Counted from the first letter of the stretch, positions 28,606 to 57,739 are shown. The stretch is DNA of 64,000 bases from Candidatus Uhrbacteria bacterium (GCA_943359345.1 CALRHE010000001.1:1995-65994), one strand, 5' to 3'. A program made the numbers and translations. The notes: a model not told the origin generated them from the letters alone.

Positions 28606-29604
28606 ATGGTAGGTCACATGCATATCGTGGTCCGCCGATTTTTATTCACCTTTTTCGTGCTGTTTTTCCTAGTCGCAGCTCCTTTAGTGGTGCTGTATAC
28701 GGCTGGATATCGGCTCAACATCTCTAACCGTCGCCTGCAACAAACCGGGGTTTTAGCCATCACCACTTTTCCTAGAGGCAGTAATATCCTTTTGAACGGC
28801 CAAAATCTAGCCCAAAAATCACCGTTTCTAGTCCAGCGCGTCATGCCCAATACTCATGCTATCGTCCTTTCAAAAAAGGGTTACCACGACTGGAGCCAAC
28901 GCATTCGCGTTGATGAAGGCCGGACAACCTATATAACTGCCCGTTTGTTTGCCAATAGCCAACCCAGTCTTTTAAATGCTAACGCCTCGGCCCTAGCCCT
29001 GCGCTCACGCTTGGCCGCCAATCTGATTACCGTAGACACGGCCAGCGTCACTTTTACTAACAATGGAGCAAACGTAGAAGTGCATTCCGGTAGCGGTAGC
29101 ACTGATCAACTGATCGCACTCCTACCGATCAACGATTACGAGTTACTAAGAGATGACGCCGAGTATTTATTACTGCGTGACGCACGTAACGTCGCCTTTG
29201 TGGTAGCCAGGCAAGGAGGTAAAGTTGTAAAGCTCCCAACTGAGCTAACCGCTTATGATTGGCTGGCCAATGAAGATATGCTCCTGTGGACTGACGGGAC
29301 TGAGATTCATATTTACGCGGCCGCTCTTGAGAACGACACTTTTGTGACCCGCGACGGACAGTCAATTGTAGACGTAGCCTGGCACCCTGAGGCTGATAGC
29401 TTTTTTGTGGCTGGAAGTATGCGCATCGATGCTTATGATATGTCTATCCATGAAACCCGTGAGGTCACTAACCTGCTGACTGACACTCAAATCGTAGATA
29501 TCTGGACTGATAGCTCCGGTAAAAATCTTTATTACCTTGATCACGAGCTCACAGACAATCGCGGAGATACTCCCCTGGTTTACAAGTTGCCGTTAAGTTT
29601 GTAA
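28606..29604 (+). CDS. PEGA-domain secreted/membrane-anchored protein
   Basis: N-terminal TM; PEGA-like block LAITTFPRGSNILLNGQNLAQKSPFLVQRVMPNTHAIVLSKKGYHDW. Confidence 0.5.
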   Translation: MVGHMHIVVRRFLFTFFVLFFLVAAPLVVLYTAGYRLNISNRRLQQTGVLAITTFPRGSNILLNGQNLAQKSPFLVQRVMPNTHAIVLSKKGYHDWSQRIRVDEGRTTYITARLFANSQPSLLNANASALALRSRLAANLITVDTASVTFTNNGANVEVHSGSGSTDQLIALLPINDYELLRDDAEYLLLRDARNVAFVVARQGGKVVKLPTELTAYDWLANEDMLLWTDGTEIHIYAAALENDTFVTRDGQSIVDVAWHPEADSFFVAGSMRIDAYDMSIHETREVTNLLTDTQIVDIWTDSSGKNLYYLDHELTDNRGDTPLVYKLPLSL

Positions 29605-30444
29605 AAATTCTTTCAAGGCCTCAAGACGTGATCGCAGTGGAGGAAACTTGGTATTTTTTAAAACGGTGAACTTCGGTCGCGCTGCGGGCTTAGGAAAAGC
29701 CGCGGCCGGGACTGGCTTACGAGGTGTGGTAACATTTTTTAATTTGAAAAACTCTTCCGTAAAGGCAAACCAGGTCACGCCTTCACCCGAGTTTACGAGG
29801 TGATAAATGCCGTAAGGATGACCGTCGGCAACAAGATCGTGAATAGCTAGAGCTAGATCCGGTGTGTAAGTTGGCATCCCAACTTCTTCATCAATGATCG
29901 ACAATTCAGGCTTACTGGCCGCGAGCCTCAGCATCAGGATAACAAAACTCTCTTTAGCGTCAGCTGATGAAGCTGGCCTCCCAAAGAGTCGTGAAGTTCT
30001 TGCAATGTAGTAATTCCCCCCAGCTTGTGCAACCAGTTGCTCGCCGGCCAACTTGCTCTCGCCGTATTTAGAGATTGGGTGTGTTTGATCTGTCTCGAGG
30101 TAACCCTCAGGCTTATCACCAGGAAAGACACAATCAGTACTCACATGCACAATCGTGGCCCCGATGCTCAGAGCGGCTTCTGCCAAGTTACCTGGCCCAG
30201 TGGCATTGATGGCGTAGGCCAAAGGATAAACAGCCGGATCCTCAGCCTGATCCATAAGATTGTAGGCCGCGCAATTCACAATCACCTCAGGCTTGAGCTC
30301 GCTAACTAACCTCATTACCTGATCGCGATTAGTAATATCCAGCCCTTCGCGATCCAACCCTGTGACCTCATGACCTTTGGCAACAAACACATCCCGTACG
30401 TCTTGGCCGAGCGCACCCTTACCTCCAGTAACTAAGACTTTCAT
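29593..30444 (-). CDS. rmlD: dTDP-4-dehydrorhamnose reductase
   Basis: MKVLVTGGKGALGQDV Rossmann start, RmlD-family length and motifs (YxxxK in AAYNLM region); adjacent to rmlC/rmlB. Confidence 0.85.
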   Translation of the reverse strand: MKVLVTGGKGALGQDVRDVFVAKGHEVTGLDREGLDITNRDQVMRLVSELKPEVIVNCAAYNLMDQAEDPAVYPLAYAINATGPGNLAEAALSIGATIVHVSTDCVFPGDKPEGYLETDQTHPISKYGESKLAGEQLVAQAGGNYYIARTSRLFGRPASSADAKESFVILMLRLAASKPELSIIDEEVGMPTYTPDLALAIHDLVADGHPYGIYHLVNSGEGVTWFAFTEEFFKLKNVTTPRKPVPAAAFPKPAARPKFTVLKNTKFPPLRSRLEALKEFLQT

Positions 30445-30504
30445 ATTTTTCAGTCCACTAACGTGCCGATCGGCACGTTAGTGGATCATTGCAAAAATGC
30501 AATG

Positions 30505-31044
30505 TTAAAACGGTAATTTCAAATCCTTAAATAGTGGTGCGGCCTGATCACGAGCGGATAGCATTGGCGTACCCATCACCGGCCAAGACACTTCCAGCTC
30601 AGGATCATTCCAAGCCACGTTACCATCACCGGCCTGATCGTACGTCTCAGTACACTTATACAGCACATCACAATCCTCAAGTGCGTAAAAGCCGTGCGCA
30701 AAGCCAACCGGCAACCACAACATCTTTTTGTTCTCAGCTGAAAGCTCAAGACCAAAAGACTGTTTATAGGTCGACGAGCCTGTGCGCAGATCAACGGCCA
30801 CATCCCAAACTCGTCCACGAGTACAACGCACAAGTTTCCCCATGGCCTTAGGCGGCAATTGAAAATGCAAACCGCGCAGCACACCTTTTACAGAGGCCGA
30901 GTGGCTGTCTTGTTTAAATTCAGTTGGCAAACCCAGGGCCGCAAACTTATCGGCGTTAAAGGTCTCCATGAAGAAACCCCGTTCATCACCAAATATTTCC
31001 GGTTCTACAACTAGCAGGCCCTCAAAGGGATAAAGAATTTTCAT
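30505..31044 (-). CDS. rmlC: dTDP-4-dehydrorhamnose 3,5-epimerase
   Basis: 179-aa cupin; MKILYPFEGLLVVEPEIFGDERGFFMETF is the characteristic RmlC N-terminus. Confidence 0.9.
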   Translation of the reverse strand: MKILYPFEGLLVVEPEIFGDERGFFMETFNADKFAALGLPTEFKQDSHSASVKGVLRGLHFQLPPKAMGKLVRCTRGRVWDVAVDLRTGSSTYKQSFGLELSAENKKMLWLPVGFAHGFYALEDCDVLYKCTETYDQAGDGNVAWNDPELEVSWPVMGTPMLSARDQAAPLFKDLKLPF

Positions 31045-31047
31045 AAG

Positions 31048-32064
31048 CTAAAGCACGCGACCAAATTGCAACTTAAACCACTCACGGTAAGCGGCACTTT
31101 GTCGGATGGGGCGCCACCAGGCTTCGTTTTTGCGGTACCAGGTAACCATGTCACGCAAACCCTCCTCGAAGGTCTGGCTCGGCTGCCAACCCAGTTCACG
31201 GTTGATCTTGGTGTAATCAATAGCGTAACGACGGTCCTGACCAGGACGATCTTTCTGATACTCCAGCATGTTTTCGGTCAGGCCCATGACGTTTAAAAGC
31301 GCCTTGGCAGTATCAAGAACGCTGTACTCAGCGTTGCCACCCATCATGTAGGTCTCACTAAGCTTACCTTTTTCGATCACCGATATCACACCCTGAGCGT
31401 GATCGTGAGCATGAATCCAATCGCGAATCTGCCGGCCATCGCCGTGAATAAAGATCGGGTCACCGTCGATGAGGTTCGTGATCGCAATCGACAAAAACTT
31501 TTCAGGATACAGAAACGGGCCGTAGTTGTTGGTACAGTTTGAAATGGTAGCCTGAAGTTGATGCGTATCTATGGCGGCCCGTACCAAATGGTCAGCTGCA
31601 GCCTTGGTGGCGCTATATGGATTGCGCGGGCCGTAGGGGGTCGACTCGTTGAACTTTGCATCATTTAGTCCGAGTGATCCAAACACCTCATCAGTGCTCA
31701 CGTGGTGCAGACGCTTACCGTGCTTCACGCAGGCGTCAATCAAACGCTGGGTGCCGAGCACGTTAGTTAAAATAAATGGTTCGACGTCAACAATAGAACG
31801 ATCAACGTGCGTCTCGGCGGCAAAGTGGGCCACGATATCAACATCCTGTACAAGGGTGTCCACCAATTTCTTATCAACGATCGAGCCGTAAACAAAACGA
31901 TATTTCGGTTGTGTCTGGATATCAATAGTATTCGCTAAATTACCAGCGTAGGTAAGCGAATCCAAATTAATAATCTCCCACTCGGGACGCTCTGCCAAAA
32001 CCGTACGGATAAAATGCGATCCTATAAAGCCGCAGCCACCAGTTACGAGCACTTTCATAGTCAC
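31048..32064 (-). CDS. rmlB: dTDP-glucose 4,6-dehydratase
   Basis: MKVLVTGGCGFIGSHFIR, catalytic YSATKAA, extended SDR. Confidence 0.9.
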   Translation of the reverse strand: MTMKVLVTGGCGFIGSHFIRTVLAERPEWEIINLDSLTYAGNLANTIDIQTQPKYRFVYGSIVDKKLVDTLVQDVDIVAHFAAETHVDRSIVDVEPFILTNVLGTQRLIDACVKHGKRLHHVSTDEVFGSLGLNDAKFNESTPYGPRNPYSATKAAADHLVRAAIDTHQLQATISNCTNNYGPFLYPEKFLSIAITNLIDGDPIFIHGDGRQIRDWIHAHDHAQGVISVIEKGKLSETYMMGGNAEYSVLDTAKALLNVMGLTENMLEYQKDRPGQDRRYAIDYTKINRELGWQPSQTFEEGLRDMVTWYRKNEAWWRPIRQSAAYREWFKLQFGRVL

Positions 32065-32130
32065 TACCCACCTTACAGGAACCAGCCAAAACAGGTCAAC
32101 AGTTTTTAAACTGCTAACTTTAGCTTAATT

Positions 32131-32553
32131 TTATATGGCTAATCTGATCATCTCAGCGACTTTGGAAAGCTCCTCTTGCGATACAGGCTGCTTCACAAAA
32201 TTTCTTGGCTCGCCGTCTTTGCGCGGCATGATGTGCAAGTGCGTATGGAGAACGTCCTGACCAGCAACTTCGCCGTGATTCATGCCGAGGTTGTAACCGC
32301 TACCGCCGACGGCTTTGGTGATTTTGGGTGCGAGATCGTGAATAGCGGTCATGAGGGCGCAGGCATCCTCGACCGAACCGGCCGCGAGATTCTCGGCGTG
32401 CTGTTTGGGAACGACAAGGGTGTGACCCGTGCTTACAGGACCGATATCGAGAAAAGCCAACACGCTATCGTTCTCGTACACTTTATGCGCAGGAATTTGG
32501 CCGGCGATAATTTTGCAAAACAAACAGTCAGACATATAGCTATTCTTTAACAT
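32131..32553 (-). CDS. HIT-family (histidine triad) nucleotide hydrolase
   Basis: CLFCKIIAGQIPA N-terminus and HTHLHIMPR histidine triad. Confidence 0.85.
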   Translation of the reverse strand: MLKNSYMSDCLFCKIIAGQIPAHKVYENDSVLAFLDIGPVSTGHTLVVPKQHAENLAAGSVEDACALMTAIHDLAPKITKAVGGSGYNLGMNHGEVAGQDVLHTHLHIMPRKDGEPRNFVKQPVSQEELSKVAEMIRLAI

Positions 32554-32881
32554 CGCTCAAAGCTTTGAGCAAGAGCAGTGGCAGGACCAGGACAATGATC
32601 GCGAGCACCAGTCGGAAAGCCCCGAAGGCATCGGCAGCCTGAAAAACGAGCAACGAGCCTATGATACCGATGGCGACGGCCACAATTTGGCAGCGGCGAT
32701 GAGGGGCACGCGCTCCCGAGCTCGTCACGAGAGCGCCGATGCCACATACCAATGCGATCAAGAGCACGATGTAAATTGGGAAGACCGAACTGACGAAACC
32801 AGGTACCTGCCACTCTACGTATACCAACGCCAAAAACGTCAGGCTCGAGACAACGTATCCGGTATACCAAAGACTACGCAT
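32540..32881 (-). CDS. Hypothetical small membrane protein
   Basis: 113 aa, 3-4 hydrophobic helices, no motifs. Confidence 0.35.
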   Translation of the reverse strand: MRSLWYTGYVVSSLTFLALVYVEWQVPGFVSSVFPIYIVLLIALVCGIGALVTSSGARAPHRRCQIVAVAIGIIGSLLVFQAADAFGAFRLVLAIIVLVLPLLLLKALSDVKE

Positions 32882-32882
32882 A

Positions 32883-34352
32883 TTAGGGTAGCAACAACTT
32901 GATGAGACGCTTTAGATCGGCCAAAGTCTCATGTATGGACACGTGTGACTTTTGAAACGTCACCTTAACTGCATGAACCGAGACCTGGCCCAAGTTATCA
33001 TGAATACCTGGCGCTGAGAGCGCAAACTTGTAGGCGTTGTTCTCAACCGCTAGCGTCGAGGTTTCAAACGCAGCACTCGCCACGCGCCAACCATCAGCTT
33101 CTCGCACGGGAGCAAGATTTGCGAGCACATGTTCAACTTCGCTCGACTCCAGATCAGTAAAGGCCGTCAGAGCAATCGGGTCTGGATCAAAAAACGATTC
33201 ACGGCTAAAGGCATACTTTCCTTCCCCGGTAATTTTTACATCGCCTACGGGACTCCTGAGTTCGATCACGCCGGTCCCTGGCACCAGGCTAGAGTATTTT
33301 GCACCGACTTCGTTGATGACGATGGGTGATCCGCCAGCCGAAATGGTTTGCAGACCCTCAGTATGCCGAGTTTCAAGCGTAATCCGTTCTGCATTAGTAA
33401 ATAAACTCGTAGCTTTAGGTGTTGGCAAAAAACCAACATCATCTCCAATAAAAACTTGATTTTTTGCTACCACATAACGCTGAGAGGTTTCAATTGTCCG
33501 CCAAATAATATCGGAAGTCCCTGACAAGGCTATCCGATACACCCCTTCCGGCCAGTCATGTCCAGCCAACTTGAGCGGTGTTCGATCTCTGGGTTGTTGG
33601 TTAGCGTAAATATTTCCGTCGTCTTGACCTACGAACTCGGTCATAAGATTCCCGTTCTCGTCATACACCCGCACCGAAACGCGATCAGGGCCGTAAGTAC
33701 GATTAACGTCGGCGTAGAGTATATCCAAAGAGAAATCTTCGTCCTTGATATAGGTCAACAGCTCATGCGGACCCCGAAGACTCACATCAAACTTTTGTCG
33801 ACCTCCAAGTGGCTCATAGTTTGTTAGACGAAAAGGCGTTGGGAAGTCGGCTCGGTAGGTGGCCACAATCGACCGATCAGGCGGCGTTTCGAGAAAAGTT
33901 TGATAAGCGTCACTCTGGGCATCACGTGAAAAAATCGCTAGACGACCATCCAGGTCATGTCGCGTCCAATCAAGATCCTCGAGGAGCGAGTTCGACAAAG
34001 GTTGAAAATCAAAGGCTTGAGCCGCTACATCTTTCAGACCACCAATTTCGAAAGTCGGCGTTCCGTCAGGATCGAAGGCGACCTCAAGCTTTACGCTTTC
34101 AAAATTTCCCGGCGGCGGCGTCACCGAGAAATACACGGGCTCGTCGAGCAAAGTCACGTAATCATCACCGTTACGCGTCGCGAGCTCGCTCACACGTTCG
34201 TCGGGCAATGGTCGCTGTACAAACGGCGAGACGTCGCCCATTTCGTAACGAACAACTCGCTCACCCGACGGCACAAGATAATTCCAAAGCAGGCCTCCGA
34301 ACAGGAAGATAGGCAAGCTCCAAATAACTAGGCGAGCCAGGCGAATATTCAT
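32883..34352 (-). CDS. Hypothetical exported protein (signal-anchor), partner of the adjacent GT-C enzyme
   Basis: N-terminal hydrophobic anchor LVIWSLPIFLFGGLLW, otherwise hydrophilic 489 aa, no recognised domain; 2-nt gap to the GT-C gene. Confidence 0.4.
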   Translation of the reverse strand: MNIRLARLVIWSLPIFLFGGLLWNYLVPSGERVVRYEMGDVSPFVQRPLPDERVSELATRNGDDYVTLLDEPVYFSVTPPPGNFESVKLEVAFDPDGTPTFEIGGLKDVAAQAFDFQPLSNSLLEDLDWTRHDLDGRLAIFSRDAQSDAYQTFLETPPDRSIVATYRADFPTPFRLTNYEPLGGRQKFDVSLRGPHELLTYIKDEDFSLDILYADVNRTYGPDRVSVRVYDENGNLMTEFVGQDDGNIYANQQPRDRTPLKLAGHDWPEGVYRIALSGTSDIIWRTIETSQRYVVAKNQVFIGDDVGFLPTPKATSLFTNAERITLETRHTEGLQTISAGGSPIVINEVGAKYSSLVPGTGVIELRSPVGDVKITGEGKYAFSRESFFDPDPIALTAFTDLESSEVEHVLANLAPVREADGWRVASAAFETSTLAVENNAYKFALSAPGIHDNLGQVSVHAVKVTFQKSHVSIHETLADLKRLIKLLLP

Positions 34353-34353: not shown

Positions 34354-35928
34354 TTATTCGGCTACGAAACGATATAAGGACTCTTCACTCATGGTCTCCA
34401 CAAACTCGATCCGAACTCCTTGAAGTAAAACCTCGTTCAAATGCTCGATATCTTTCTCCGGCAAGGTGATTCCAAAATAATACACCGGCACCTGTTCGAG
34501 CATGGCTGGCAAGGTCGCGTACGTCGTCTCGCTTCGTAATGGAACGACGACTCGACGCTCTGGATAGAGGTATTTGTCGGCTCGGTCAACGATAACGATC
34601 GCTTCCGACTCGGTCAATGTTAGAATTCGAGCTTCCTTATCAACAAACGTCGCCAGGGCAGCTCGACTCGGTAGATACCCGTCGTGACCAAAGAAGACGA
34701 GCTCGAGCGACAGCAGCGTAGCGAGTATGACAATGCCGCCGGTAAAAACTTTTCTGAGTAACGATCGATCACCGAGCATGTAAACCAAGGTGCGAGCTCC
34801 AAAGACGCTCGCCAGCGCGAACAGTGGCAACCAGTAACGTACGTGGGAGTTGCCGAGAGAAATAATCGATGGGTCTGGGTTGTCGATAATTTTCCAGCTG
34901 CCGTATACAATGCCAAGCCAAGCTGCGAGGACTAACGTAAATACAGCTAACGTACGCCAGAGCTTTTTGTGTTCATCACGTTCAGCCAAGGCGAGTATGA
35001 GGCCAGCGACAGCGAGCACGCTCATCCAGGGATACAACTTCCAACCGTAATCTATGATGTTGTTGAGAATGACACGCTCGTGAAAACCAAATGGGAGTAA
35101 GAAATTTCTCTTCGGCTCGTCAATAGCTGTCGTAGCTGCATCGTCACTGATAACGATAGCCGCGTAGGGATACTGAGCCGTGTAACCATTCACAAATGGA
35201 CTACCGTACATCGTGGCGTTGATAACACCGAGCAGGCCTAGCATGGCCACAAAACCCACCGCCAAGCTCACCATCGACCTCCAACCAATCACGGCTCGAT
35301 AGAGCGCAAATACGGCCACGATAGCGGCCGTTAGCCAGATAATTTCTGACGTTCTGACGATCAGGGCAGCACCAAGGAACGCGCCAGCGATAGCAAAACT
35401 CAATGGTCGACGAGAACGTAGACTGAACCACACGCCAGCAATCACCAACGTCAAAAAGGCTACATTATGCATCATGACTCGACCGGAGTAGTACCAAAAA
35501 GCGGGATGAATCATGAGCAAAAATGCGGCTGCATCTGCTAAGAACTCGTTCTTGAAAACTCGCCGCACGCTGTCGCGCCAAAGAATGATGGCGATCACTG
35601 CAAGTACTGGCGTCACGAAATACATGGCGTAATTACCAAGGACAGCGCCAATCACGCCAAGTACGAACACGAAACCTACAAAACTCGCCGACACGATCGC
35701 TCCCCCGTAACCAATCGTACTGCGGGGATGCAACAAGCCACCCAGCTCGTCATTCAAGGCTTCAGAGGTCGATAAACGACCGGAGTCGGCAAAGGTTTTC
35801 GCGAATACATAAGCTGCGTTCTCATCCGGCGACACGAAAAGTTCGCGACTAAACGGCCAGCTCAAGGTTAAGGTCGACGCAAAAAAGAGGACGAGCACAA
35901 CCCCCCAGACCAAACGTCGAGTGGTCAT
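34354..35928 (-). CDS. GT-C fold glycosyltransferase (PMT/ArnT-like; candidate protein or lipid glycosyltransferase using polyprenol-P-sugar)
   Basis: About 12 TM helices; Asp-Glu pair in first extracytoplasmic loop (SPDENAAYVFAKTF), the position of the catalytic DE/DExRY motif in GT39/GT83 enzymes. Confidence 0.5.
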   Translation of the reverse strand: MTTRRLVWGVVLVLFFASTLTLSWPFSRELFVSPDENAAYVFAKTFADSGRLSTSEALNDELGGLLHPRSTIGYGGAIVSASFVGFVFVLGVIGAVLGNYAMYFVTPVLAVIAIILWRDSVRRVFKNEFLADAAAFLLMIHPAFWYYSGRVMMHNVAFLTLVIAGVWFSLRSRRPLSFAIAGAFLGAALIVRTSEIIWLTAAIVAVFALYRAVIGWRSMVSLAVGFVAMLGLLGVINATMYGSPFVNGYTAQYPYAAIVISDDAATTAIDEPKRNFLLPFGFHERVILNNIIDYGWKLYPWMSVLAVAGLILALAERDEHKKLWRTLAVFTLVLAAWLGIVYGSWKIIDNPDPSIISLGNSHVRYWLPLFALASVFGARTLVYMLGDRSLLRKVFTGGIVILATLLSLELVFFGHDGYLPSRAALATFVDKEARILTLTESEAIVIVDRADKYLYPERRVVVPLRSETTYATLPAMLEQVPVYYFGITLPEKDIEHLNEVLLQGVRIEFVETMSEESLYRFVAE

Positions 35929-35930: not shown

Positions 35931-36515
35931 CTAGAGCGAGTAGGTAGCTACGGCAATACCGGCAAACACTAACGAGGCCACAAACACATACTCAGCCAGC
36001 TGAATCAAGGCCGGGACATTGAAAACGATACCCAGCAAAAGCAGTGTGAGAGAACTAAATTGTAAAAACATCTTAAGCTTGCCCCAAACGTTAGCTGCCA
36101 TGATGGTTCCAGCGTAACGGGTTGAGGCCCAACGCAATGACGGTAAGATATCCAGCATGAGGGCGATGAACACGATCAGCGGATTAAAATGTTGTAGCGC
36201 CACAAGTAAGGCCACCGAACCAATCAGAAGCTTATCAGCTACAGGGTCAAAGAAAATCCCCCACGGCGTCACCTGCTTGCGGACACGGGCCACCGAGCCG
36301 TCGAGCGCATCCGTAAACGCAGCCAGAATAAATAGCGGCACCGCCCAGGTGTATTGCTCTGTAAACAACAACCATAAAACGATTGGCGTCATCAAAAAAC
36401 GTACCACCGTAATGTGGTTGGGGTGAACAAATTTGGGAACAAGCGGCAAAATAACCACCCTCATGACATAGTCATGGGGGTAGAGTTTTGTCATGTCTCG
36501 ATGCGTGCCAATCAT
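35931..36515 (-). CDS. CDP-alcohol phosphatidyltransferase family protein
   Basis: Motif DALDGSVARVRKQVTPWGIFFDPVADK = D-x2-DG-x2-AR-x8-G-x3-G-x3-D. Confidence 0.75.
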   Translation of the reverse strand: MIGTHRDMTKLYPHDYVMRVVILPLVPKFVHPNHITVVRFLMTPIVLWLLFTEQYTWAVPLFILAAFTDALDGSVARVRKQVTPWGIFFDPVADKLLIGSVALLVALQHFNPLIVFIALMLDILPSLRWASTRYAGTIMAANVWGKLKMFLQFSSLTLLLLGIVFNVPALIQLAEYVFVASLVFAGIAVATYSL

Positions 36516-46197: not shown

Positions 46198-46886
46198 TAC
46201 TCACAGTTCCGTTTCAACGATTCCAGATCATCCTTCAAAGCCTGATTATCAGGCAACAAAACCACCGCTACTTCATAATGGTCAACCGCTTTATCACACT
46301 CGCCCTCGGCTACATACCAGTCACCAAGCCCGGTCATGTTCCAGACTGTTTGACCACGACGAAGTAAATCTTCCTCATAGACCGTCTTTAGATCATCACG
46401 TCGCTCCGGGAAATGATCTAATAAGAAATCAGCATAATCCTCGTAATACTTGGCCACACCTTGACCGACTTCGATGGTTTTAATAAAGGCTGCCTCAGCC
46501 GCCTCCCAGTCCTGCATGTCTTCCAGCACCAAAGCGTAGTTATTCCAAGCTACGTAGTTAATCGAATTAACGGCTAACTGTTTTTCGAGTTGCTCACGGG
46601 CCGTTACCAAATCACCCAAACTATAGGCATCCGAAGCGGCGCTTAAGTACAGGTTTAAATCAATGTCACCTCCGGCGTCTTCCGTGGCTTCAATAGCTGC
46701 CAGCGTAGTGGTCATACGTTGTTCAAAATATTCGCGCGTAGCTTCTTCGAGATCAACCTCAATTGTGGTCACCAAGCCTTTATACGGGTTAACTGGTAGC
46801 CCTGCTAGCCAGAATCCATAACTTGCCATTACTACAATAACCACACCCACCAAACCCTCTATTATCTGCTGTCGAGATAACGTCAT
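46197..46886 (-). CDS. Membrane-anchored TPR-like repeat protein
   Basis: N-terminal TM; helical repeats with AWNNYALVLEDMQDWEAAEAAFIKTIEV and YYEDYADFLLD; ends with Cys pair. Confidence 0.4.
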   Translation of the reverse strand: MTLSRQQIIEGLVGVVIVVMASYGFWLAGLPVNPYKGLVTTIEVDLEEATREYFEQRMTTTLAAIEATEDAGGDIDLNLYLSAASDAYSLGDLVTAREQLEKQLAVNSINYVAWNNYALVLEDMQDWEAAEAAFIKTIEVGQGVAKYYEDYADFLLDHFPERRDDLKTVYEEDLLRRGQTVWNMTGLGDWYVAEGECDKAVDHYEVAVVLLPDNQALKDDLESLKRNCE

Positions 46887-51343: not shown

Positions 51344-51435
51344 TCAAGGGGTAAAGAATAGAGGTGACACCCGACCGTGCGGTCCCGACCTTTTGAAGGT
51401 ATCCACCTGGGGAGATGCGATTGCAATCCCTTTGT

Positions 51436-51473
51436 CCCGCACCTTGCTAACATCGGTGTCAGCAAGGTGCGGG
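51436..51473 (-). promoter_or_regulatory. Perfect 13-bp stem-loop in the 5' UTR of the giant surface-protein gene
   Basis: CCCGCACCTTGCT-(12 nt)-AGCAAGGTGCGGG; not followed by a U-run, so more likely an attenuator/processing/stability element than a simple terminator; GGAAC-containing ECF-like -35 candidates lie just upstream (51455-51480 region on the minus strand). Confidence 0.35.
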
Positions 51474-51482
51474 GTGAAGGTT

Positions 51483-52559
51483 CTACAATATTGGTTCCTG
51501 AACACCAACAGGTGTTTGGATGCGAGCGTTCATGATCATGATTTCGATCTGAGCGAGCTCGGCCTCGATGTCTAAAAGCGAGCTATCAATTGTCTGAAGT
51601 GTTGCAAAGGCGGTCCGAAAGCCTCCAATCGCAAAACTGCTCATAGCCTGTGACAACAGCGAGTCAACAGCTACTATTGGGTACTCATATCCAATCAACT
51701 GCTCGCTAGTCGGTACAGTGAGACCATCGTAAGTAATGCTGGTGTCGGCCAAGGCGGCCCGGACAACCTCAATGCGCTCCAGATCAAAGCGTTGGCGAGC
51801 CTCCACCTGACCTAGCTCTGTCTTAAACATCTCCTTAAGCTCACGTTCACTCAAGGCTGACTGTTGCTCTTCATGCACCTCCATCACGACCGTGGTAGCA
51901 ACTTCGCTGACCTCACTAGTAATTTCCTTAGCTACTAAAACATCTTGGGTGGCTTCAGCTGAGGCGCTGTCGGCTACAACTTGATCAATAGCGGCTCCGA
52001 TATCCTGGAGATTTTGTGATACTGAGCTGGCTGTTGCTAAAGCACTCTCGCCACCCTCATCTTTAAGCTGGCGCAGGTTGTCACCAGCCGAGGCCACTTC
52101 TTGCTTGTAAGCCTCAATGGCGTTACGAACAAGTTCAGCATTCTGAGAATTATCCTCGGCACCCTGGAGATCAGTTGCTTCCTGAAGTCTACGACCAGCG
52201 AATTCCGTGTGCAAAACCGCACGTCGATCAAGCGAAGCTAATTTAAGCTGAGCTTTCTCCGTTAGCATTTTTACAGAGTAAAGTTTTTCGCCCGGTAAGC
52301 TATCGGCTGCACTCACAGTCGTAATCCAACCACCAGCCACAATCACCAAACTAAACGCACCCGCCATAACGGGTTTTGATAAAAATTGCGCCATGTGCCA
52401 TTTCAAATATTCGAAATACATCTCCGAAACACTAGGTGTCGGCGTTTCTTCGATCGCTTCATGTAGGCGAGCACGAATTTTTTGGAACGAAGCCTCACTC
52501 ATAGCCCCGAGTCTGGGCTCGCGCTTTAGAGCTTTCATTTTAGCTTTGAGGCTTTTCAT
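51483..52559 (-). CDS. Putative anti-sigma factor (single-TM, long coiled-coil extracytoplasmic domain; DUF5667-like)
   Basis: Overlaps the ECF sigma gene by 20 nt (translational coupling); cytoplasmic N-terminus, one TM helix (AGAFSLVIVAGGWITTVSA), helical extracytoplasmic region. Confidence 0.5.
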   Translation of the reverse strand: MKSLKAKMKALKREPRLGAMSEASFQKIRARLHEAIEETPTPSVSEMYFEYLKWHMAQFLSKPVMAGAFSLVIVAGGWITTVSAADSLPGEKLYSVKMLTEKAQLKLASLDRRAVLHTEFAGRRLQEATDLQGAEDNSQNAELVRNAIEAYKQEVASAGDNLRQLKDEGGESALATASSVSQNLQDIGAAIDQVVADSASAEATQDVLVAKEITSEVSEVATTVVMEVHEEQQSALSERELKEMFKTELGQVEARQRFDLERIEVVRAALADTSITYDGLTVPTSEQLIGYEYPIVAVDSLLSQAMSSFAIGGFRTAFATLQTIDSSLLDIEAELAQIEIMIMNARIQTPVGVQEPIL

Positions 52560-53079
52560 ACTTTTGCAGCGCCTGACGCGCTCGATGAATGAGAACTCGG
52601 ATATTGTTTGGGGTCTTCTGAGTAACGGCGGCGATTTCCTCTACTGTCATTTGGTCAAAGAACCGGAGCGTTATAACTTCAACTTGATCTGGAGACAACC
52701 TCTTGATATTTGCTCTCAGTTGCTCGATCTCGAGTTTGTTGGCCACGTCCTCACTCAACGACCCGGGTTGAATGGCTGCCGGACTGGTTTCAACTAGTTC
52801 TGTTGTAACCTTACGCTGCCTATAAAAGTCAGCTATCAGGTTGCGAGCAATTTTGAAGTACAAGCCACCAACCTCTTGGACATCGCTCGCCACCATATAC
52901 TCCCAGGCGCGCAGAAGAACCTCACCTGTCAACTCGTCGGCGTCCTCGTCCCTAGGCAACTTGAAGGCCAGGAAACGATATAGCTTAGGACCAAAATAGG
53001 CATACAAATCATCATAAGCCTGCCGATCTCGGAAGCGATAAACGCGAAAGGCTAGAAATTTTATGCGTGTCGGTGACAT
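52540..53079 (-). CDS. ECF-type sigma-70 family RNA polymerase sigma factor
   Basis: Region 2 (DADELTGEVLLRAWEYM, YFKIARNLIADFYRQRK) and region 4 HTH (LSPDQVEVITLRFFDQMTVEEIAAVTQKTPNNIRVLIHRAR). Confidence 0.85.
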   Translation of the reverse strand: MSPTRIKFLAFRVYRFRDRQAYDDLYAYFGPKLYRFLAFKLPRDEDADELTGEVLLRAWEYMVASDVQEVGGLYFKIARNLIADFYRQRKVTTELVETSPAAIQPGSLSEDVANKLEIEQLRANIKRLSPDQVEVITLRFFDQMTVEEIAAVTQKTPNNIRVLIHRARQALQKYEKPQS

Positions 53080-53167
53080 GCATGAGTCAAGAAAAATCTG
53101 TAAATCATTACTTTGACCTGAATTTCAGCCTATCTAACACTTATTTACCTATGAAAGCAACGGGTCG

Positions 53168-53196: not shown

Positions 53197-53271
53197 AGAG
53201 TAGACAAAAAGTCTTACGCTGTATTTACAGTCATTGTAAAGTCGCACTCCCTAGCCTTTCATTACAAGCTT

Positions 53272-53561: not shown

Positions 53562-53600
53562 AACAAAAAGACCCAGGGCGTGAGCCCTGGGTCTTTTTGT
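53562..53600. terminator. Bidirectional rho-independent terminator between the HTH gene (+) and a GT4 gene (-)
   Basis: AAAAAGACCCAGGGC-GTGA-GCCCTGGGTCTTTTTG: perfect 15-bp arms including A/T runs. Confidence 0.85.
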
Positions 53601-53606
53601 AATTAC

Positions 53607-54755
53607 TTATTCAAGTGCTAGCAAACCCTCAGGTACCAGCGTGTGCACGCGGTAGATGGACAAAATTTCAGCCGCGATATCATCCCAATTGAAGGCGTCC
53701 TCTACAAAGGTACGGGCCACATGGCCAAGGCCAGCGGCCTGCATGGGGTCTCGGGCAAGCTCGACAATTTTATCAGCCAGATCCTGAACATCGTTGACCT
53801 TGAAGGTCACACCGTAGTCGCCGACAATCTCCTGGTTCTCAGGAATGTCTGAAGCAATCACGGCCTTGCCATAGCTCATGGCCTCAAGCACCGCAATCGG
53901 TAAGCCCTCGCTCGTTGAAGGGTGGACCACAAAACGGGCACCGGCAAACACAGCTCCAAGTGTCTCACCAGACTGATAGCCAGTCATGACAATCGAGGGG
54001 TCAGAAGCAGCCTGAGCTTCAAGCTGACGAACATAGTCATCAGTGAAGGCCGAACCGCCGACAATGGCAAGCTTCAAGCCCTTAGGCTTAGCAAGTTTCC
54101 AAGCCTCGATCAGCGTGTGAGCCCCCTTGTGAGGAACAAGACGCGATACCATCAGCACATAACCAAAGGGTTCAAGACCAAAAGGTTCGAGCAAAATGGG
54201 GTCAGTCGAAACGCGCTGCGGAGTAATACCGTTTGGAATATACACGGCCGTGCCGTTGTATTCAGTTTTGGCGTACTGCGCGATAGTCTTGCTCACGGCA
54301 ATAGTCGTGTGAGCAAAGGTCAGCGTAGCGCGCTCACCGAGCTTAAGCATGAAGCGAGCTAGCGGTCCCCACTTAGCGTGCCAGCGATCCACGGAGTGGA
54401 AAGTGGTAATCACGGTAGCGCGAGGAGCCAAGATGCGGGGCATCCAAGCCAGCAATGAGGGGCCGACGCCGTGGAAGTGGTAAATATCCGGACGAACAAA
54501 TATGACAGCATGAACAATCGCTATCAAGGTGTGTGTGATAGTGTCAAAGCACTTGGTGTGGAGGCTTGGCAGGCGGACCACCTGAATGCCATTAAACATA
54601 GCAGAACCCACAGTTCGTGGGGTATACCAGCGACGGGCATAAGCAATAACACTATGACCAGCGCGCACCAGACGCGTCGAAAGCTCAGTCACGTGGGTTT
54701 CCACGCCACCAAACTTACCCGGCACGCCCTTTTGTCCAATCATGACAATTTTCAT
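53607..54755 (-). CDS. Glycosyltransferase family 4
   Basis: MKIVMIGQKGVPGKFGGVETHV start (GT4 with bound-sugar-donor N-domain), C-terminal GT1 domain STSEGLPIAVLEAMSYGK. Confidence 0.85.
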   Translation of the reverse strand: MKIVMIGQKGVPGKFGGVETHVTELSTRLVRAGHSVIAYARRWYTPRTVGSAMFNGIQVVRLPSLHTKCFDTITHTLIAIVHAVIFVRPDIYHFHGVGPSLLAWMPRILAPRATVITTFHSVDRWHAKWGPLARFMLKLGERATLTFAHTTIAVSKTIAQYAKTEYNGTAVYIPNGITPQRVSTDPILLEPFGLEPFGYVLMVSRLVPHKGAHTLIEAWKLAKPKGLKLAIVGGSAFTDDYVRQLEAQAASDPSIVMTGYQSGETLGAVFAGARFVVHPSTSEGLPIAVLEAMSYGKAVIASDIPENQEIVGDYGVTFKVNDVQDLADKIVELARDPMQAAGLGHVARTFVEDAFNWDDIAAEILSIYRVHTLVPEGLLALE

Positions 54756-54888
54756 AACCGGCTAGAATACCAAAAAATCCCCATTTTGTCCACCGTTCGA
54801 CAGGCTTGCGGTGGACCCTGAGCGTAGCCGAAAGGGTCAATAAAATTGGCCAAAATATGGCTAGTTTAGACCTGTGTTTAAAGGCCTT

Positions 54889-56124
54889 TTACTTGTGGAT
54901 AACTACACCATCGTAAACCTCAAACAGTTTAGATATGTGCTTATTAGGGTCGGCGTTGGCCTTAGCGTATCGAAACGCCCCCTGCCCCATCCGTTCTAAG
55001 TCCTCAGGGTGTTTTAAGGCCCTTTTAAGCAGAGTGTTTAAATCCTGAATATCTCCAGCCTTAAAGATCAGGCCATTAACACCATCTTTAACCTTTTCAG
55101 GTAAACCACCAGCGTCGCTCACGACGACCGGCGTCCCACAGGCCATAGCCTCGATGGCCACGAGCCCATACGGCTCAGCCCAGCGTGACGGAACCATGAC
55201 TAACTGAACCCTCGCCATCAAGGCCCAAAGTTCTTGACTGCTCAAATAACCCAAGTATTCAAAATTATCTAACCTAGCCTGAGCATCCCGTACCTGAGTT
55301 TCGAGCGGACCGGTGCCGGTCATAAAAAATTTGGTCTTAGGGAAAGTTTCCGCTGCTTGTAAAAATAAATCTACACCTTTGTAAGTCTCTAGCCGTCCAG
55401 AAAATAATATCCCCTCACGAGCAGTCGAGCTGACTGATGGTGGTGCCTCAACGCCTGACAAAAAATTTCCAGCAAACAAGGGCAAGACCGTCATTTTATT
55501 GGCTGGGTAGCCTGCTTTCACGAGCGTCTGCTTCACAAATTCTGACGACGGCAAGTACACATCTATAGCTCGATCATAAAGTTTAAGGGCTTTATGAAAA
55601 CGATAAATTAATTCAAGTGCCAAGGTGGCAATAAATGAATTTTTGATATAACGGCTTCTAGCCACCGTCAGCAGCTTAAGATTTTCTGGCTTGAGTGGGC
55701 GTTGACCGCTCCACAAACCATAATTGGCGCTCACAAGCGCGTAGTCGTGCACGGTCATGACGACTGGAACACACTGGGCCCGACAAGCTGCCAAGACTGA
55801 TGGCGATAAATGTGTGTAGGCATTATGCAGATGCACTACATCCGGCCTGAAGGCTTTTAGCATGGCTTTCATTTTACGCCTGGCCTCAAACGACCATAAG
55901 GCCCGCCCCAATTGTCGAAACATGTCGATCCCATAACCCACGTGCGAGGTGTCGAGTGAGGATACGAAATATTTGTCCCAGGCGCTCGGAAGATTACGTG
56001 GATCGTGCATGGCAAAAATAGCCACGGCGTGACCCGCCTGCTCCTCAAGCCGCATAACATCAAACAGGTAGCGACCTGCGCCGTCATGATCATGGTAGTA
56101 CTTGTGGACGTGGAGAATGCGCAT
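54889..56124 (-). CDS. Glycosyltransferase family 4
   Basis: MRILHVHKYYHDHDGAGRY N-terminus; C-terminal EPYGLVAIEAMACGTPVV. Confidence 0.85.
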   Translation of the reverse strand: MRILHVHKYYHDHDGAGRYLFDVMRLEEQAGHAVAIFAMHDPRNLPSAWDKYFVSSLDTSHVGYGIDMFRQLGRALWSFEARRKMKAMLKAFRPDVVHLHNAYTHLSPSVLAACRAQCVPVVMTVHDYALVSANYGLWSGQRPLKPENLKLLTVARSRYIKNSFIATLALELIYRFHKALKLYDRAIDVYLPSSEFVKQTLVKAGYPANKMTVLPLFAGNFLSGVEAPPSVSSTAREGILFSGRLETYKGVDLFLQAAETFPKTKFFMTGTGPLETQVRDAQARLDNFEYLGYLSSQELWALMARVQLVMVPSRWAEPYGLVAIEAMACGTPVVVSDAGGLPEKVKDGVNGLIFKAGDIQDLNTLLKRALKHPEDLERMGQGAFRYAKANADPNKHISKLFEVYDGVVIHK

Positions 56125-56144
56125 ATCGGCTCACTTTTCCGGGT

Positions 56145-57677
56145 TTACAACACTTTTTCTCGTTGACCAAGAGCGATGACCACGCCCGCCATGGTCCATA
56201 AATATGGGGCTAACGTACGCACTTCAAGGAAGGTGGCTAAACACGCGTTCAGCCCGACCGCTAACATGGCCGCACATACGCCCAGCGCCAGTGCTCGTGT
56301 TTCAGCATCTGACGACTTGTGATACACGCGTAAACAAGCTGCAAACAAAGCTAGGTACAACCATAAATACATGGCCAGCCCCAAGCTGCCGACTTCGCCC
56401 CACAAACTAAACCAGTTGTTATCAATGTAGCCATCAGTTCCGTAAACACCAAAAGGTAAACTCAATTCGTCATACACCTGCGTGTTACCAAGCGCCGCCG
56501 CTGTACCGCCTCCATACATACCCGGACCGTGACCAAAAATCGGTGAGGCCGGTACAACTTCCGTGATGGTCTGCACCACCCAGTACAGTCTACCTAAGCC
56601 GTGATACTCACCTACCCAACGCTCGTAGGAGAAAGCCTCAAAGAAACGATTAGTGATCGACTGATCAGACACATCTACCAACTCACGCACAACCAGTCCT
56701 GTTAGAGCTATATACGACAAGAGCAGCGTGGGAATAATCATCGTAGCCGCGATGACACGTTTGTCGCGTTTGATGAAGGCAGCGATAAACAAAAAACCAA
56801 GTAAAAATCCAAACCAAGCCGAGCGTGAATACGTCAATGCGAGTACAGGTAAGCTAGCCATCAACACCAGCCAAACCCATAAACGATCTTTATCCTTGGT
56901 TGCTCGTTCGTAAATCACGGCCACCATCATCAGCATGATAAAGGCCATAAACGTTCCCAGTTGATCATACCGGCCGAGAGTACCAAACACGCGCTGACCA
57001 GGATCCCAAAACTGAACCGTACCAGCAGTTAATTGGATGTCTCCGAGTGTGTGGCGTTCGCCAGGCAATAAAAAAGTGTCCAAGCGTTCGCCAACAACTA
57101 TCTGAGCTGCACCCAAAAACACCTGGAACAACAAAACTGCGCCCAAGGCCATAAGTACAATTCTCGCCCACCTCTTGCTAGGTGCTAATTGCACGGTCAC
57201 AAAGAACAAAAACATGAAGCGTAAAATCTGGCGCACGCCGAGCACGGCCGGCATAATCGGCAAGAAATTGACAATTACTGAAGCAATCACCGCAAAGAGC
57301 AGAAAAGCAAACGGAACATCAATCGAAGTGCGCTTAAAACGTAATTCACCGGTAATCAACTTCCAGAGCGTAGCGGCGACTAACAAATAAATCAGCAATT
57401 CAGATCCGTACTTGGCATAAACGTATAATTCGTCCGGTATCCACTTTAAAATAAACGGCTCAAAGGGCAAGTATGTAAGTAAAAATGCCAAACTCCAGGT
57501 GGGACGAAAAAACGTAAACACCGCCGCCGTGGTAGCCCCCACCACCGCCACCACTAATCCCGGTGACACAAACACGACTCCCAAGATGGCGGCCGTGAGT
57601 AATAAAAATAATCCTCCCAGTGACCACTTGGCCCGCATTTCAGAGGCGTAATAAATAGAGTGCAGGTTCAAAAGCAT
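56145..57677 (-). CDS. O-antigen ligase/polymerase-family (Wzy_C-like) polytopic membrane protein; candidate O-oligosaccharyltransferase
   Basis: About 12 TM helices with a large extracytoplasmic loop near the C-terminal third. The track's start at 57722 is a GTG inside a terminator hairpin of the neighbouring island gene, so the ATG at 57677 (MLLNLH...) is more plausible. Confidence 0.45.
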   Translation of the reverse strand: MLLNLHSIYYASEMRAKWSLGGLFLLLTAAILGVVFVSPGLVVAVVGATTAAVFTFFRPTWSLAFLLTYLPFEPFILKWIPDELYVYAKYGSELLIYLLVAATLWKLITGELRFKRTSIDVPFAFLLFAVIASVIVNFLPIMPAVLGVRQILRFMFLFFVTVQLAPSKRWARIVLMALGAVLLFQVFLGAAQIVVGERLDTFLLPGERHTLGDIQLTAGTVQFWDPGQRVFGTLGRYDQLGTFMAFIMLMMVAVIYERATKDKDRLWVWLVLMASLPVLALTYSRSAWFGFLLGFLFIAAFIKRDKRVIAATMIIPTLLLSYIALTGLVVRELVDVSDQSITNRFFEAFSYERWVGEYHGLGRLYWVVQTITEVVPASPIFGHGPGMYGGGTAAALGNTQVYDELSLPFGVYGTDGYIDNNWFSLWGEVGSLGLAMYLWLYLALFAACLRVYHKSSDAETRALALGVCAAMLAVGLNACLATFLEVRTLAPYLWTMAGVVIALGQREKVL

Positions 57678-57704
57678 GGCGTCAGTATACCAAAAATGCA
57701 CGAA

Positions 57705-57739
57705 GGCCCAGCCTCTCCCCACGCGGGAGTGACTGGGCC
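57705..57739 (-). terminator. Terminator hairpin at the left edge of the high-GC island
   Basis: GGCCCAG-CCT-CTCCC...GGGAG-TGA-CTGGGCC, followed on the minus strand by a T-rich tract; lies only about 25 nt from the start of the O-antigen-ligase-like gene. Confidence 0.5.

Follow-up and report, generated by a model that had tools for sequence, protein, structure and literature searches.

The window analysed here is a stretch of 64,000 nucleotides from a Candidatus Uhrbacteria bacterium (GCA_943359345.1 CALRHE010000001.1:1995-65994), and it holds a lineage-specific cell-envelope locus of this Uhrbacteria-type member of the Patescibacteria. The core of the locus would be a unit made of an extracytoplasmic function (ECF) sigma factor, a DUF5667 anti-sigma-like membrane protein and a 1,427-residue acidic secreted protein, hereafter the giant, which is the putative coat protein of the cell; it is accompanied by sugar-nucleotide genes, glycosyltransferases (GT) and polytopic membrane enzymes (Table 1). 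An initial annotation made from the sequence alone had described the region as a system for the O-glycosylation of a surface glycoprotein. The giant gene and the glycan genes are indeed linked family-wide, but the idea that a protein is the glycan acceptor gained no direct support. We consider it likely that the coat-like protein and the glycan enzymes are coupled as one functional unit, and we propose only tentatively that the giant is O-glycosylated and thus the glycan acceptor itself.

Table 1. Features of the locus and related genes of the window, in order of position
Feature	Position	Strand	Evidence and remarks
WecA/TagO-like polyprenyl-phosphate HexNAc-1-P transferase	3855-4943	-	PF00953 E 5e-26; candidate initiating enzyme
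rmlD	29593-30444	-	TIGR01214 239 bits (NCBIfam equivalog cut-off 224)
rmlC	30505-31044	-	TIGR01221 214 bits (cut-off 156)
rmlB	31048-32064	-	TIGR01181 418 bits (cut-off 365)
HIT-family (HinT-like) protein	32131-32553	-	PF01230 E 6e-24; syntenic in L003-L007
113-aa membrane protein	32540-32881	-	Four apparent hydrophobic segments, read from sequence; weakly conserved in L003, L005, L007
489-aa protein	32883-34352	-	N-terminal anchor, one predicted transmembrane segment (TM), large extracytoplasmic part; syntenic in L003-L007
524-aa GT-C glycosyltransferase, PMT_2-like, polytopic	34354-35928	-	Family-level PMT_2 matches
CDP-alcohol phosphatidyltransferase	35931-36515	-	PF01066 E 1e-29; pgsA-like, 78 bits against a cut-off of 109
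675-aa second GT-C-fold glycosyltransferase, polytopic	36549-38576	+	AlphaFold2 model and Foldseek
GT4a and GT4b	38573-39811 and 39818-40933	-	PF00534, PF13692, E 1e-29 to 7e-37
GT2	40935-42014	-	PF13641 E 1e-13; missing from L001 and L010
DUF2304 partner (GacJ/Rv3632-like)	42021-42389	-	PF10066 E 6e-20
Small GT2, DPM1-like, GacI/PpgS-like polyprenyl-phosphate sugar synthase	42352-43029	-	PF00535 E 3e-18
Extended SDR, NDP-sugar epimerase or dehydratase	43107-44111	-	PF01370 E 8e-37
Secreted S8 subtilase, C-terminal FG-GAP	44113-46197	-	PF00082 E 1e-47, FG-GAP_3; signal peptide visible
Membrane-anchored TPR protein	46197-46886	-	TPR_12 E 3e-10; one N-terminal TM; directly after the giant gene
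Giant acidic secreted protein, 1,427 aa	47018-51301	-	ATG 51301; open reading frame extends to GTG 51343
N-terminal module of the giant, three small beta-rich repeats	50552-51196	-	Candidate cell-wall-binding anchor
Giant leader/intergenic region, 181 nt	51302-51482	-	Five-locus alignment; no Rfam family
Single-pass DUF5667 membrane protein, anti-sigma-like	51483-52559	-	PF18915 E 3e-7; TM at residues 64-82
ECF sigma factor	52540-53079	-	Sigma70_r2, r4_2; TIGR02937 72 bits (cut-off 42.9)
ECF-type promoter-like motif GTAAY-N16/17-(C/T)GWCT	53085-53111	-	Ends 5 nt before the sigma ATG
HTH_17/excisionase-type DNA-binding gene, 94 aa	53272-53556	+	TIGR01764 35 bits (cut-off 28.8)
Bidirectional intrinsic terminator	53563-53600	both	17-bp stem, T-runs on both strands
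GT4c	53607-54755	-	PF00534/PF13439 (GT4c and GT4d pair)
GT4d	54889-56124	-	PF00534/PF13439 (GT4c and GT4d pair)
Wzy_C-family (O-antigen ligase/polymerase/O-oligosaccharyltransferase) polytopic protein (WzyC)	56145-57722	-	PF04932 E 3e-9, 37.2 bits (cut-off 31.7)
Weak CpsC/Wzz-like chain-length-determinant candidate	61862-62506	-	Two TMs, the second G-rich

Gene products of the locus

The giant carries a signal peptide and is a secreted protein, as the initial annotation had proposed, but it most likely starts at the ATG that the database gene call also uses, which makes it shorter than the 1441 residues first given. Searches gave more than 300 full-length homologues; those listed (120) have identities of 43-82% to the giant, nearly all with 98-100% query coverage and with lengths of 1,340-1,490 residues, and a metagenome scan widened the family to 26% identity. 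Where a source is named, these homologues, like those of the two GT-C proteins described below, are labelled Patescibacteria, Candidatus Uhrbacteria, Candidatus Parcubacteria or just "bacterium". The composition of the giant is even along the chain (Thr 11%, Ser 9%, Asp 12%, Lys plus Arg below 4%, pI 4.05), and an alignment of 49 sequences showed conservation from end to end with few gaps, no low-complexity linker and no mucin-like stretch. No Pfam or NCBIfam family matched the giant, and neither SLH, CWB2 nor adhesin-type repeats were found in it. Judging from its sequence, the stretch of about 1,200 residues that follows the N-terminal module, rich in Thr, Ser, Asp, Gly and Ala, is probably folded. 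Since the giant is a conserved and apparently folded protein with a composition like that of surface-layer (S-layer) proteins, its richness in Thr and Ser is in itself no pointer to glycosylation sites.

The N-terminus is the most conserved part of the giant. An AlphaFold model of residues 36-250 (pLDDT 86) displayed the three small repeats of the module, with a weak PlyCB/EccB-like fold; other endolysin wall-binding domains were matched as well, with modest scores and a coherent set of matches. The repeats of EccB1 had earlier been noted as PlyCB-like (PMC4769845), and PlyCB binds the polyrhamnose backbone of the streptococcal wall carbohydrate (bioRxiv 10.1101/2021.03.19.436156). An exhaustive search found the module in 4,057 cluster representatives, 3,183 of them at E <= 1e-10, mostly right behind the signal peptide of proteins of 230-1,550 residues and sometimes at the C-terminus. 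The latter position is seen in orthologues of the S8 subtilase, a candidate maturation protease, in which the module replaces FG-GAP (L018 15057-16667, L021 15139-16770, L025 11144-12772 and L052 16060-17724), an exchange that reads as a domain swap of the presumed anchoring part. A modular and widely shared surface-targeting domain of this kind fits a wall anchor, and the module is a candidate for the role that SLH and CWB2 have as wall-anchoring modules of Firmicutes.

Two of the membrane proteins are classed as GT-C glycosyltransferases. For the 524-residue protein, this rests on its family: the protein itself has no Pfam match and only a weak one to NCBIfam LA_3751/2, but 12 of 42 family members match PMT_2 (PF13231, best E 8.6e-9), and an SPDE motif (S33-P34-D35-E36) is invariant after the first TM. 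The 675-residue protein, which had not been recognised in the initial annotation, is a second GT-C by its modelled fold (pLDDT 90, pTM 0.91), given that the ten top PDB hits in Foldseek were all GT-C enzymes (AftA at E 3e-5, STT3, PglB and ArnT among them; probability 0.93-1.0, TM-score 0.30-0.45). Its 278 homologues are clade-specific, none of them with a Pfam domain, and the family has an invariant GxGFDPFxH loop motif that includes D206, and a C-terminal soluble domain. An hhalign comparison detected no relation between the two GT-C families, and searches of PDB sequences (E <= 10) gave no match for either protein or for WzyC. The 489-residue protein, whose gene always comes after that of the 524-residue GT-C, matched nothing in Pfam, NCBIfam or, at the same threshold, the PDB. 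The 113-residue protein matched no Pfam or NCBIfam family and is, speculatively, a candidate flippase for polyprenyl-phosphate-linked sugars. WzyC has about 11 predicted TMs and no NCBIfam match; its gene forms a conserved trio with two GT4 genes and lies 4.8 kb upstream of the giant gene, past the sigma unit and the terminator. Its Wzy_C domain is not diagnostic of an O-oligosaccharyltransferase (O-OTase), since WaaL ligases and some polymerases carry this domain too.

Most enzymes named in the initial annotation were recovered with profile searches: rmlB, rmlC and rmlD, all above their NCBIfam equivalog cut-offs, the CDP-alcohol phosphatidyltransferase, the DPM1-like enzyme with its DUF2304-like partner, the O-antigen-ligase-family membrane protein, the S8 subtilase with FG-GAP and the tetratricopeptide repeat (TPR) protein. 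Others had to be revised. Pfam finds four GT4 enzymes instead of five; the GT2 and the DPM1-like enzyme are both real, but the GT2 total is two with the latter included; and the presumed UXS-like decarboxylase is better called a generic short-chain dehydrogenase/reductase (SDR), because its best NCBIfam equivalogs (dTDP-glucose dehydratase, LegB and GalE) are all far under cut-off. Missed altogether were the HIT protein, the 113- and 489-residue membrane proteins, the HTH_17 gene, the bidirectional terminator and the WecA-like and CpsC/Wzz-like genes. The WecA-like gene lies outside the region first delimited, with WecA as its best NCBIfam match (115 bits, cut-off 326), and the true MraY is a separate copy at 22492-23571. 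The CpsC/Wzz-like protein reaches 24 bits for GNVR (cut-off 27.7) and aligns full-length with TIGR01006 at 35 bits (cut-off 296); its gene was not seen beside WzyC in the relatives examined.

The genes of the small GT2 and its DUF2304 partner overlap each other, and among NCBIfam families the GT2 matches PpgS best, at 172 bits under an equivalog cut-off of 370. By sequence, the pair matches the GacI/GacJ and PpgS/Rv3632 arrangement, in which the GT2, stimulated by the small protein, makes a polyprenyl-phosphate-linked N-acetylhexosamine (HexNAc), whose sugar is then transferred outside the membrane by a GT-C enzyme (bioRxiv 10.1101/180810). GT4c has a weak rhamnosyltransferase signature (DUF1972, 27 bits; Cps2T, E 7e-16 over the full length and far under cut-off). 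The CDP-alcohol phosphatidyltransferase gene is separated from the 524-residue GT-C gene by only 2 nt. A lipid anchor resembling phosphatidylinositol or its mannosides, made with the HIT protein, the CDP-alcohol transferase and a GT4, was considered but is left unsupported, its basis being a mycobacterial operon and sub-threshold matches only.

As had been noted initially, there is no rmlA and no ABC or Wzx exporter in the 64 kb. Pfam and NCBIfam scans found neither rmlA nor any other nucleotidyltransferase among the window proteins, and rmlA may lie elsewhere in the genome. The whole window also gave no match to an LCP ligase, and Pfam scans none to a flippase of the Wzx, GtrA or SMR type. 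The 10 kb past its right end hold housekeeping genes only (SmpB, IF3, L20/L35 and a copper ATPase), without exporter, LCP ligase or rmlA.

Sigma unit and gene order across relatives

The giant lies immediately downstream of the ECF sigma and anti-sigma-like genes, in this order, as initially described. The closest family of the sigma factor is BldN (89 bits, under the BldN cut-off). The DUF5667 gene overlaps the sigma gene by 20 nt and, in relatives too, comes after it; its product showed no canonical anti-sigma domain. A promoter-like motif, GTAAY-N16-CGWCT, was found 5-6 nt before the sigma start codon in 5/5 loci compared, the window copy having one mismatch and a 17-nt spacer, and this position implies a leaderless, autoregulated sigma transcript. 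The window (at 53240-53265, minus strand), L008 and L010 have a second copy some 150 nt farther upstream. The HTH_17 gene is divergent from the sigma gene, in a place that is conserved in relatives, and its product may be a second regulator of the unit. The bidirectional terminator divides the WzyC-GT4-GT4 operon from the sigma unit; apart from it, a scan for sigma-70 promoters and terminators over 46.8-53.7 kb stayed at chance level.

That the ECF factor controls the giant, as the initial annotation had it, is backed by a universal gene linkage, but the promoter motif stands only before the sigma gene. With up to one mismatch allowed, it is absent upstream of the giant in five loci, which counts against such control, and it is also absent upstream of the TPR, WzyC and GT4c genes. 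ECF control of the giant is therefore unproven, and it would need read-through past a hairpin at 51436-51474, directly after the anti-sigma stop codon. By read-through only, such control is plausible, with the universal linkage of the sigma and giant genes as the main argument. The leader of the giant is not the long structured 5' untranslated region initially described: it has 181 nt, that one hairpin and a conserved 22-nt box (51372-51393, minus strand; AAAGGTCGGGACCGCAnGGTCG) about 70 nt upstream of the start codon in 5/5 loci. The box contains a small hairpin, GACC-GCAC-GGTC, whose pairing is kept via a double change in L001, and may serve to bind a protein or act as an RNA element. The consensus fold of the leader is weak (-9.6 kcal/mol, few compensatory pairs, five loci), and Rfam at its gathering threshold gave three tRNAs only and no match for the leader.

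The synteny comparison that the initial annotation had proposed was made with eleven close-relative loci from genomes or assemblies, ten of them with DNA (L001-L010) and one as a gene table only. They share one gene order, down to 36-45% identity: WzyC-GT4d-GT4c, variable cargo, the divergent HTH_17 gene, ECF, DUF5667, giant, variable cargo, TPR, S8, SDR, GT2, DUF2304, (GT2), GT4b, GT4a, the 675-residue GT-C on the opposite strand, the CDP-alcohol transferase, the 524-residue GT-C, the 489-residue protein, (the 113-residue protein), HIT and RmlBCD. With the metagenome relatives described below included, the stretch from WzyC to the GT-C gene keeps its order down to giants of 34% identity. One of these eleven loci, L006 (CAYFME010000005.1), is titled 'uncultured Gammaproteobacteria bacterium' yet carries the full Uhrbacteria-type syntenic cluster, and is likely a mislabelled bin.

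The family was then followed into 80 metagenome loci with giants 26-87% identical, for which we give raw counts. Among the 58 loci whose flank is long enough, 56 have the ECF gene directly upstream of the giant, and the two exceptions are due to an offset artefact. Within 7 kb downstream, 28/35 loci have either a TPR gene (18 loci) or a gene for a Wzy_C+TPR fusion (10 loci), and in 21 of the 22 loci with full flanks one or more GT or Wzy_C genes are found no further than 10 kb from the giant. In a distant clade, with giants 27-34% identical, asparagine synthase, another SDR and other GT4 stand in place of the S8/GacI/GT-C set, L069 having ATP-grasp, GNAT and C92 amidase genes there. Directly after the giant gene, this clade carries a gene for a Wzy_C protein of 750-830 residues with a C-terminal TPR domain (Pfam; 11 loci), for example in L047 (13941-16424), L069 (14318-16567), L070 (15921-18206), L071 (13957-16191 and 16908-19205) and L075 (14548-19071), sometimes in two tandem copies. 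The fusion is kept in L069 and L070 even though their other neighbours include no glycosyltransferases (10 scanned proteins from L069, L070 and L093, or BLAST labels), and several distant loci also keep a separate Wzy_C-GT4-GT4 trio upstream.

Because ECF, TPR or Wzy_C+TPR and GT genes accompany the giant across these 80 loci, we argue that the coupling between the coat protein and the glycan machinery is real. The giant with its sigma unit and the glycan genes could instead be independent of each other and adjoin only through the frozen gene order of a small-genome lineage. Collinearity in the close clade does extend through PEGA, S41, NUDIX and CTP synthase, a point against a functional coupling, and since it reaches into housekeeping genes, close-range synteny alone is weak evidence on function. 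A strong terminator also stands between the WzyC operon and the sigma unit, the modules freely take up cargo genes between them, and the cluster of L009 is broken after GT4a. However, the association with Wzy_C and GT genes holds where the giants are only 27-34% identical and other neighbours have been replaced, it is present in all but one of the fully flanked loci, and the modules remain adjacent despite the insertions between them, and we regard a lack of functional coupling as very improbable.

Relatives have two insertion hot spots, one between GT4c and the HTH gene and one right after the giant gene. Their cargo is variable (L001 1945-7617, L008 14435-20155, L009 15326-16009 and the gene table) and includes RHS/SpvB toxins of about 1,900 residues, MopE proteins, MATCAP, Bro-N and a Y1 transposase; in the window, neither place holds cargo.

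Coat protein, glycan acceptor and competing readings

Taking the gene identities, the GT-C folds, the family-wide synteny and the modular anchor domain as the observed basis, we infer a coat function for the giant and propose a glycan acceptor, sugar identities and an order of steps. The giant would most likely form an S-layer-like coat, held on the wall by its N-terminal module, and the TPR protein and the secreted S8 protease, whose genes are its conserved closest neighbours, may assist in its assembly or maturation. In a first lane, the WecA-like enzyme would begin a glycan on undecaprenyl phosphate, to be extended with dTDP-rhamnose from RmlBCD by GT4c, GT4d and the remaining GT4 and GT2 enzymes and handled outside the membrane by the Wzy_C-family enzyme. 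In a second lane, the SDR epimerase would supply the GacI/GacJ-type synthase, giving a polyprenyl-phosphate-linked (N-acetyl)hexosamine, and after flipping, the two GT-C enzymes (524 residues, PMT_2-like; 675 residues, AftA/OST-like) would add sugars outside the membrane. If the coat protein is the acceptor, the Wzy_C enzyme together with the TPR protein may act on it as an O-OTase, as WsaB and PglL do on their targets, with the GT-C enzymes adding or extending sugars.

We favour O-glycosylation of the giant because the Wzy_C-family and TPR genes stay with the giant gene across deep divergence and because of the precedents of TfpW, PglL and PilO. TfpW, a glycosyltransferase with a TPR domain, has its gene immediately downstream of pilA, which encodes its target, and it uses polyprenyl-phosphate-sugar chemistry related to that of AftA and Emb (bioRxiv 10.1101/2020.04.19.049825). 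Similarly, 21/31 PglL homologues adjoin their pilin target (PMC3643930). The likeness to TfpW, PilO/TfpO and PglL lies in a transferase gene beside its protein target and in the Wzy_C family to which PglL and PilO belong; here, in contrast, the target would be a 1,427-residue coat protein rather than a pilin, the PglL_A domain is absent, and the TPR and Wzy_C proteins of the window are encoded by separate genes about 9 kb apart, the fusion occurring only in distant relatives and being the orthologue of neither.

Several observations weigh against this reading. The initial annotation had taken the Thr and Ser of the giant for O-glycosylation sites; the richness is real, but these residues are evenly spread and not preferentially conserved, being slightly less conserved than the others (top-residue frequency 0.56 against 0.63 in 49 sequences), and the alignment contains no linker-like region for glycosylation. 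It had also proposed a PMT/ArnT-like GT-C and a profile check of the Wzy_C and PMT domains: Wzy_C passed and PMT_2 matches were found in the family, but PMT (PF02366, GT39) was matched neither by the 524-residue protein or any of its 42 family members nor by any other protein of the locus. PglL_A (PF15864), a motif that separates PglL from WaaL (PMC3643930), was not matched at E <= 0.01 in any protein of the locus, WzyC included; its absence is compatible with O-OTase activity, since PilO also lacks it (PMC3643930). The known acceptors of the GacI/GacJ and PpgS/Rv3632 systems are polysaccharides, namely the polyrhamnose of the group A carbohydrate (GAC) and mycobacterial arabinogalactan (bioRxiv 10.1101/180810). 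As would fit ordinary Wzy-dependent polymers, the window has the WecA-like gene and, 4 kb from WzyC, the weak CpsC/Wzz-like gene; of the parts of a Wzx/Wzy-type pathway it thus holds Wzy_C and two candidates well under their equivalog cut-offs, but no Wzx. A flippase or exporter, rmlA and an LCP ligase are missing from it. The idea that the TPR protein and WzyC of the window are the split halves of the distant fusion was tried and rejected: their pairwise similarity to it is not significant, which leaves only a positional analogy. Finally, an anchoring glycopolymer fits the wall-binding-like N-terminus of the giant equally well.

The latter point leads to another reading, which we consider possible if somewhat doubtful, in which the enzymes make a rhamnose-containing secondary wall polymer or lipoglycan, no protein is glycosylated, and the giant and other surface proteins are bound non-covalently via the PlyCB-like module. 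The logic would be a Wzy_C plus CpsC-like polymerisation, as with TuaE/TuaF, followed by the addition of side chains by GacI/GacJ-type and GT-C enzymes as in GAC or arabinogalactan, with a lipid anchor or phospho-substituent supplied by the CDP-alcohol transferase. Such a polymer would explain why the genes stay together, the giant being anchored on it as SLH and CWB2 proteins are on wall polymers. It agrees with the GT2-DUF2304 pair, with the weak Cps2T/DUF1972 signature of GT4c, with RmlBCD above cut-offs, with the WecA-like, CpsC-like and CDP-alcohol transferase genes, and with a 675-residue GT-C whose fold is closest to that of AftA, a polysaccharide builder. It agrees as well with a module that resembles PlyCB, a polyrhamnose binder, and endolysin wall-binding domains, and that is common to thousands of secreted proteins, including the adjoining protease in relatives. 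On the other hand, LCP ligase, Wzx and ABC exporter were not found in the window or in the 10 kb past its right end, the CpsC-like match is far under cut-off and its gene is not conserved beside WzyC in relatives, and a wall polymer leaves without explanation the Wzy_C+TPR fusion that directly follows the giant in lineages without other GT genes nearby.

Protein glycosylation and a wall polymer are not exclusive. The S-layer proteins of Geobacillus, for instance, are glycosylated and also bound to a wall polymer. We rank O-glycosylation of the giant first, the anchoring polymer second and uncoupled genes third. A joint reading, rather unlikely to hold in all its parts, would make the giant the S-layer protein of Uhrbacteria-type bacteria of the candidate phyla radiation (CPR), held by a CPR-wide PlyCB/EccB-like module and O-glycosylated by a TPR-assisted Wzy_C transferase, with two clade-specific GT-C enzymes adding sugars and the ECF/anti-sigma pair sensing envelope state or host contact.

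Host contact is also central to the possibility that the giant is an attachment adhesin or fibre of an episymbiont, switched on at contact by the ECF/anti-sigma pair, with glycan genes that serve either the giant or the wall. The tight and universal linkage to that pair suggests conditional rather than constitutive expression, and module-bearing paralogues and RHS toxins cluster beside the giant in relatives. However, the giant family is single-copy-like and conserved over its full length, with a uniform S-layer-like composition, and adhesin-type repeats and Pfam domains were not found in it; we therefore hold an adhesin to be unlikely.

The favoured reading, O-glycosylation of a coat protein, has a close counterpart in the slg clusters for S-layer glycosylation in Geobacillus stearothermophilus and Paenibacillus alvei, whose O-OTase is WsaB/WsfB. 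Like these, the locus belongs to a monoderm envelope and combines rml genes, GT4 and GT2 enzymes, a Wzy_C-family membrane enzyme and an acidic Thr/Ser-rich surface protein as presumed acceptor. Unlike them, it lacks rmlA, an ABC or Wzx exporter and a Bac_transf initiating enzyme; it adds two GT-C enzymes, the GacI/GacJ pair and a CDP-alcohol transferase, the target gene is part of the cluster and comes with a dedicated ECF/anti-sigma pair, and the anchor is not SLH. With actinobacterial Ppm1 and Pmt, it shares a GT2 polyprenyl-phosphate-sugar synthase and a GT-C with an acidic DE-type motif after the first TM, which could modify Ser/Thr of secreted proteins; in contrast to that system, PF02366 is undetected, PMT_2 matches are weak and occur only in relatives, and the synthase is of the GacI/PpgS (HexNAc) type with DUF2304, not of the Ppm1 type.

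Other known systems resemble the locus from the side of the wall. The GacI/GacJ/GacK/GacL and PpgS/Rv3632/Rv3779 systems (bioRxiv 10.1101/180810) likewise cluster a small GT2 with an adjacent DUF2304 protein, a GT-C and rhamnose genes, but here there is no GacK-type flippase, GacDE exporter or GacH, and the two GT-C enzymes are unrelated; moreover, those systems act on polysaccharides as far as their acceptors are known, and the PpgS score here (172 against 370) is under the equivalog cut-off. The co-location of S-layer genes with wall-polymer synthesis is a general principle (bioRxiv 10.1101/2025.04.02.646754). As to gene content, our locus also has a putative coat gene clustered with presumed wall-glycopolymer genes and a dedicated protease, and a candidate anchoring domain common to other putative wall proteins; it differs in its PlyCB/EccB-like anchor instead of SLH or CWB2, its S8 subtilase, its ECF/anti-sigma unit and its occurrence in a CPR bacterium. 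The loci compared here, slpA with the AP locus and Cwp84 in C. difficile and sap-eag-csaB in B. anthracis, place S-layer genes beside wall-polymer synthesis and a protease.

The enzyme classes and the general logic are already known. The clade-specific families (the giant, the two GT-C enzymes and the 489-residue protein) are new, as are the anchor-like module with its wide occurrence and the ECF-antisigma-giant-(Wzy_C/TPR) core, which is conserved throughout a broad CPR clade. Full-text searches of the accessible literature on S-layers or glycosylation in CPR, Patescibacteria or Uhrbacteria, and on DUF5667, turned up no paper describing the giant family or DUF5667, and none in which a coat protein, an S-layer protein or a pathway for envelope glycans is named for CPR bacteria. 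Several candidates come from the locus: a family of coat proteins, an anchoring module of wide occurrence, two new GT-C families and a regulatory unit. Should the Wzy_C+TPR enzymes prove to be protein O-oligosaccharyltransferases, the range of this class would grow to include CPR bacteria and a substrate of very large size; should the glycan instead be a wall polymer to which the module binds, the locus would represent a new S-layer-anchoring system.

Surrounding sequence

A PEGA-domain protein (28606-29604, plus strand) and an S41 (Ctp-type) protease with PDZ (27320-28561, minus strand) adjoin rmlD, with synteny in relatives; perhaps additional envelope factors, they are not counted into the locus. 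Further to the left lies a dcw-type cell-wall cluster (12087-23571; Mur ligases, MurG, FtsW and MraY), split by a P-type cation ATPase (16296-18902) and a tRNA-Lys. Right of WzyC, positions 57700-61500 form an island of 62% GC in a genome of about 50% GC, with many overlapping open reading frames in other frames. Those at 57750-58481 (with a weak MopE motif), 58565-59332, 59506-60171 and 60415-61293 have N-termini resembling lipoproteins or signal peptides. The island is not an assembly chimera, since it is present in three independent assemblies (L011-L013), and it is probably acquired DNA.

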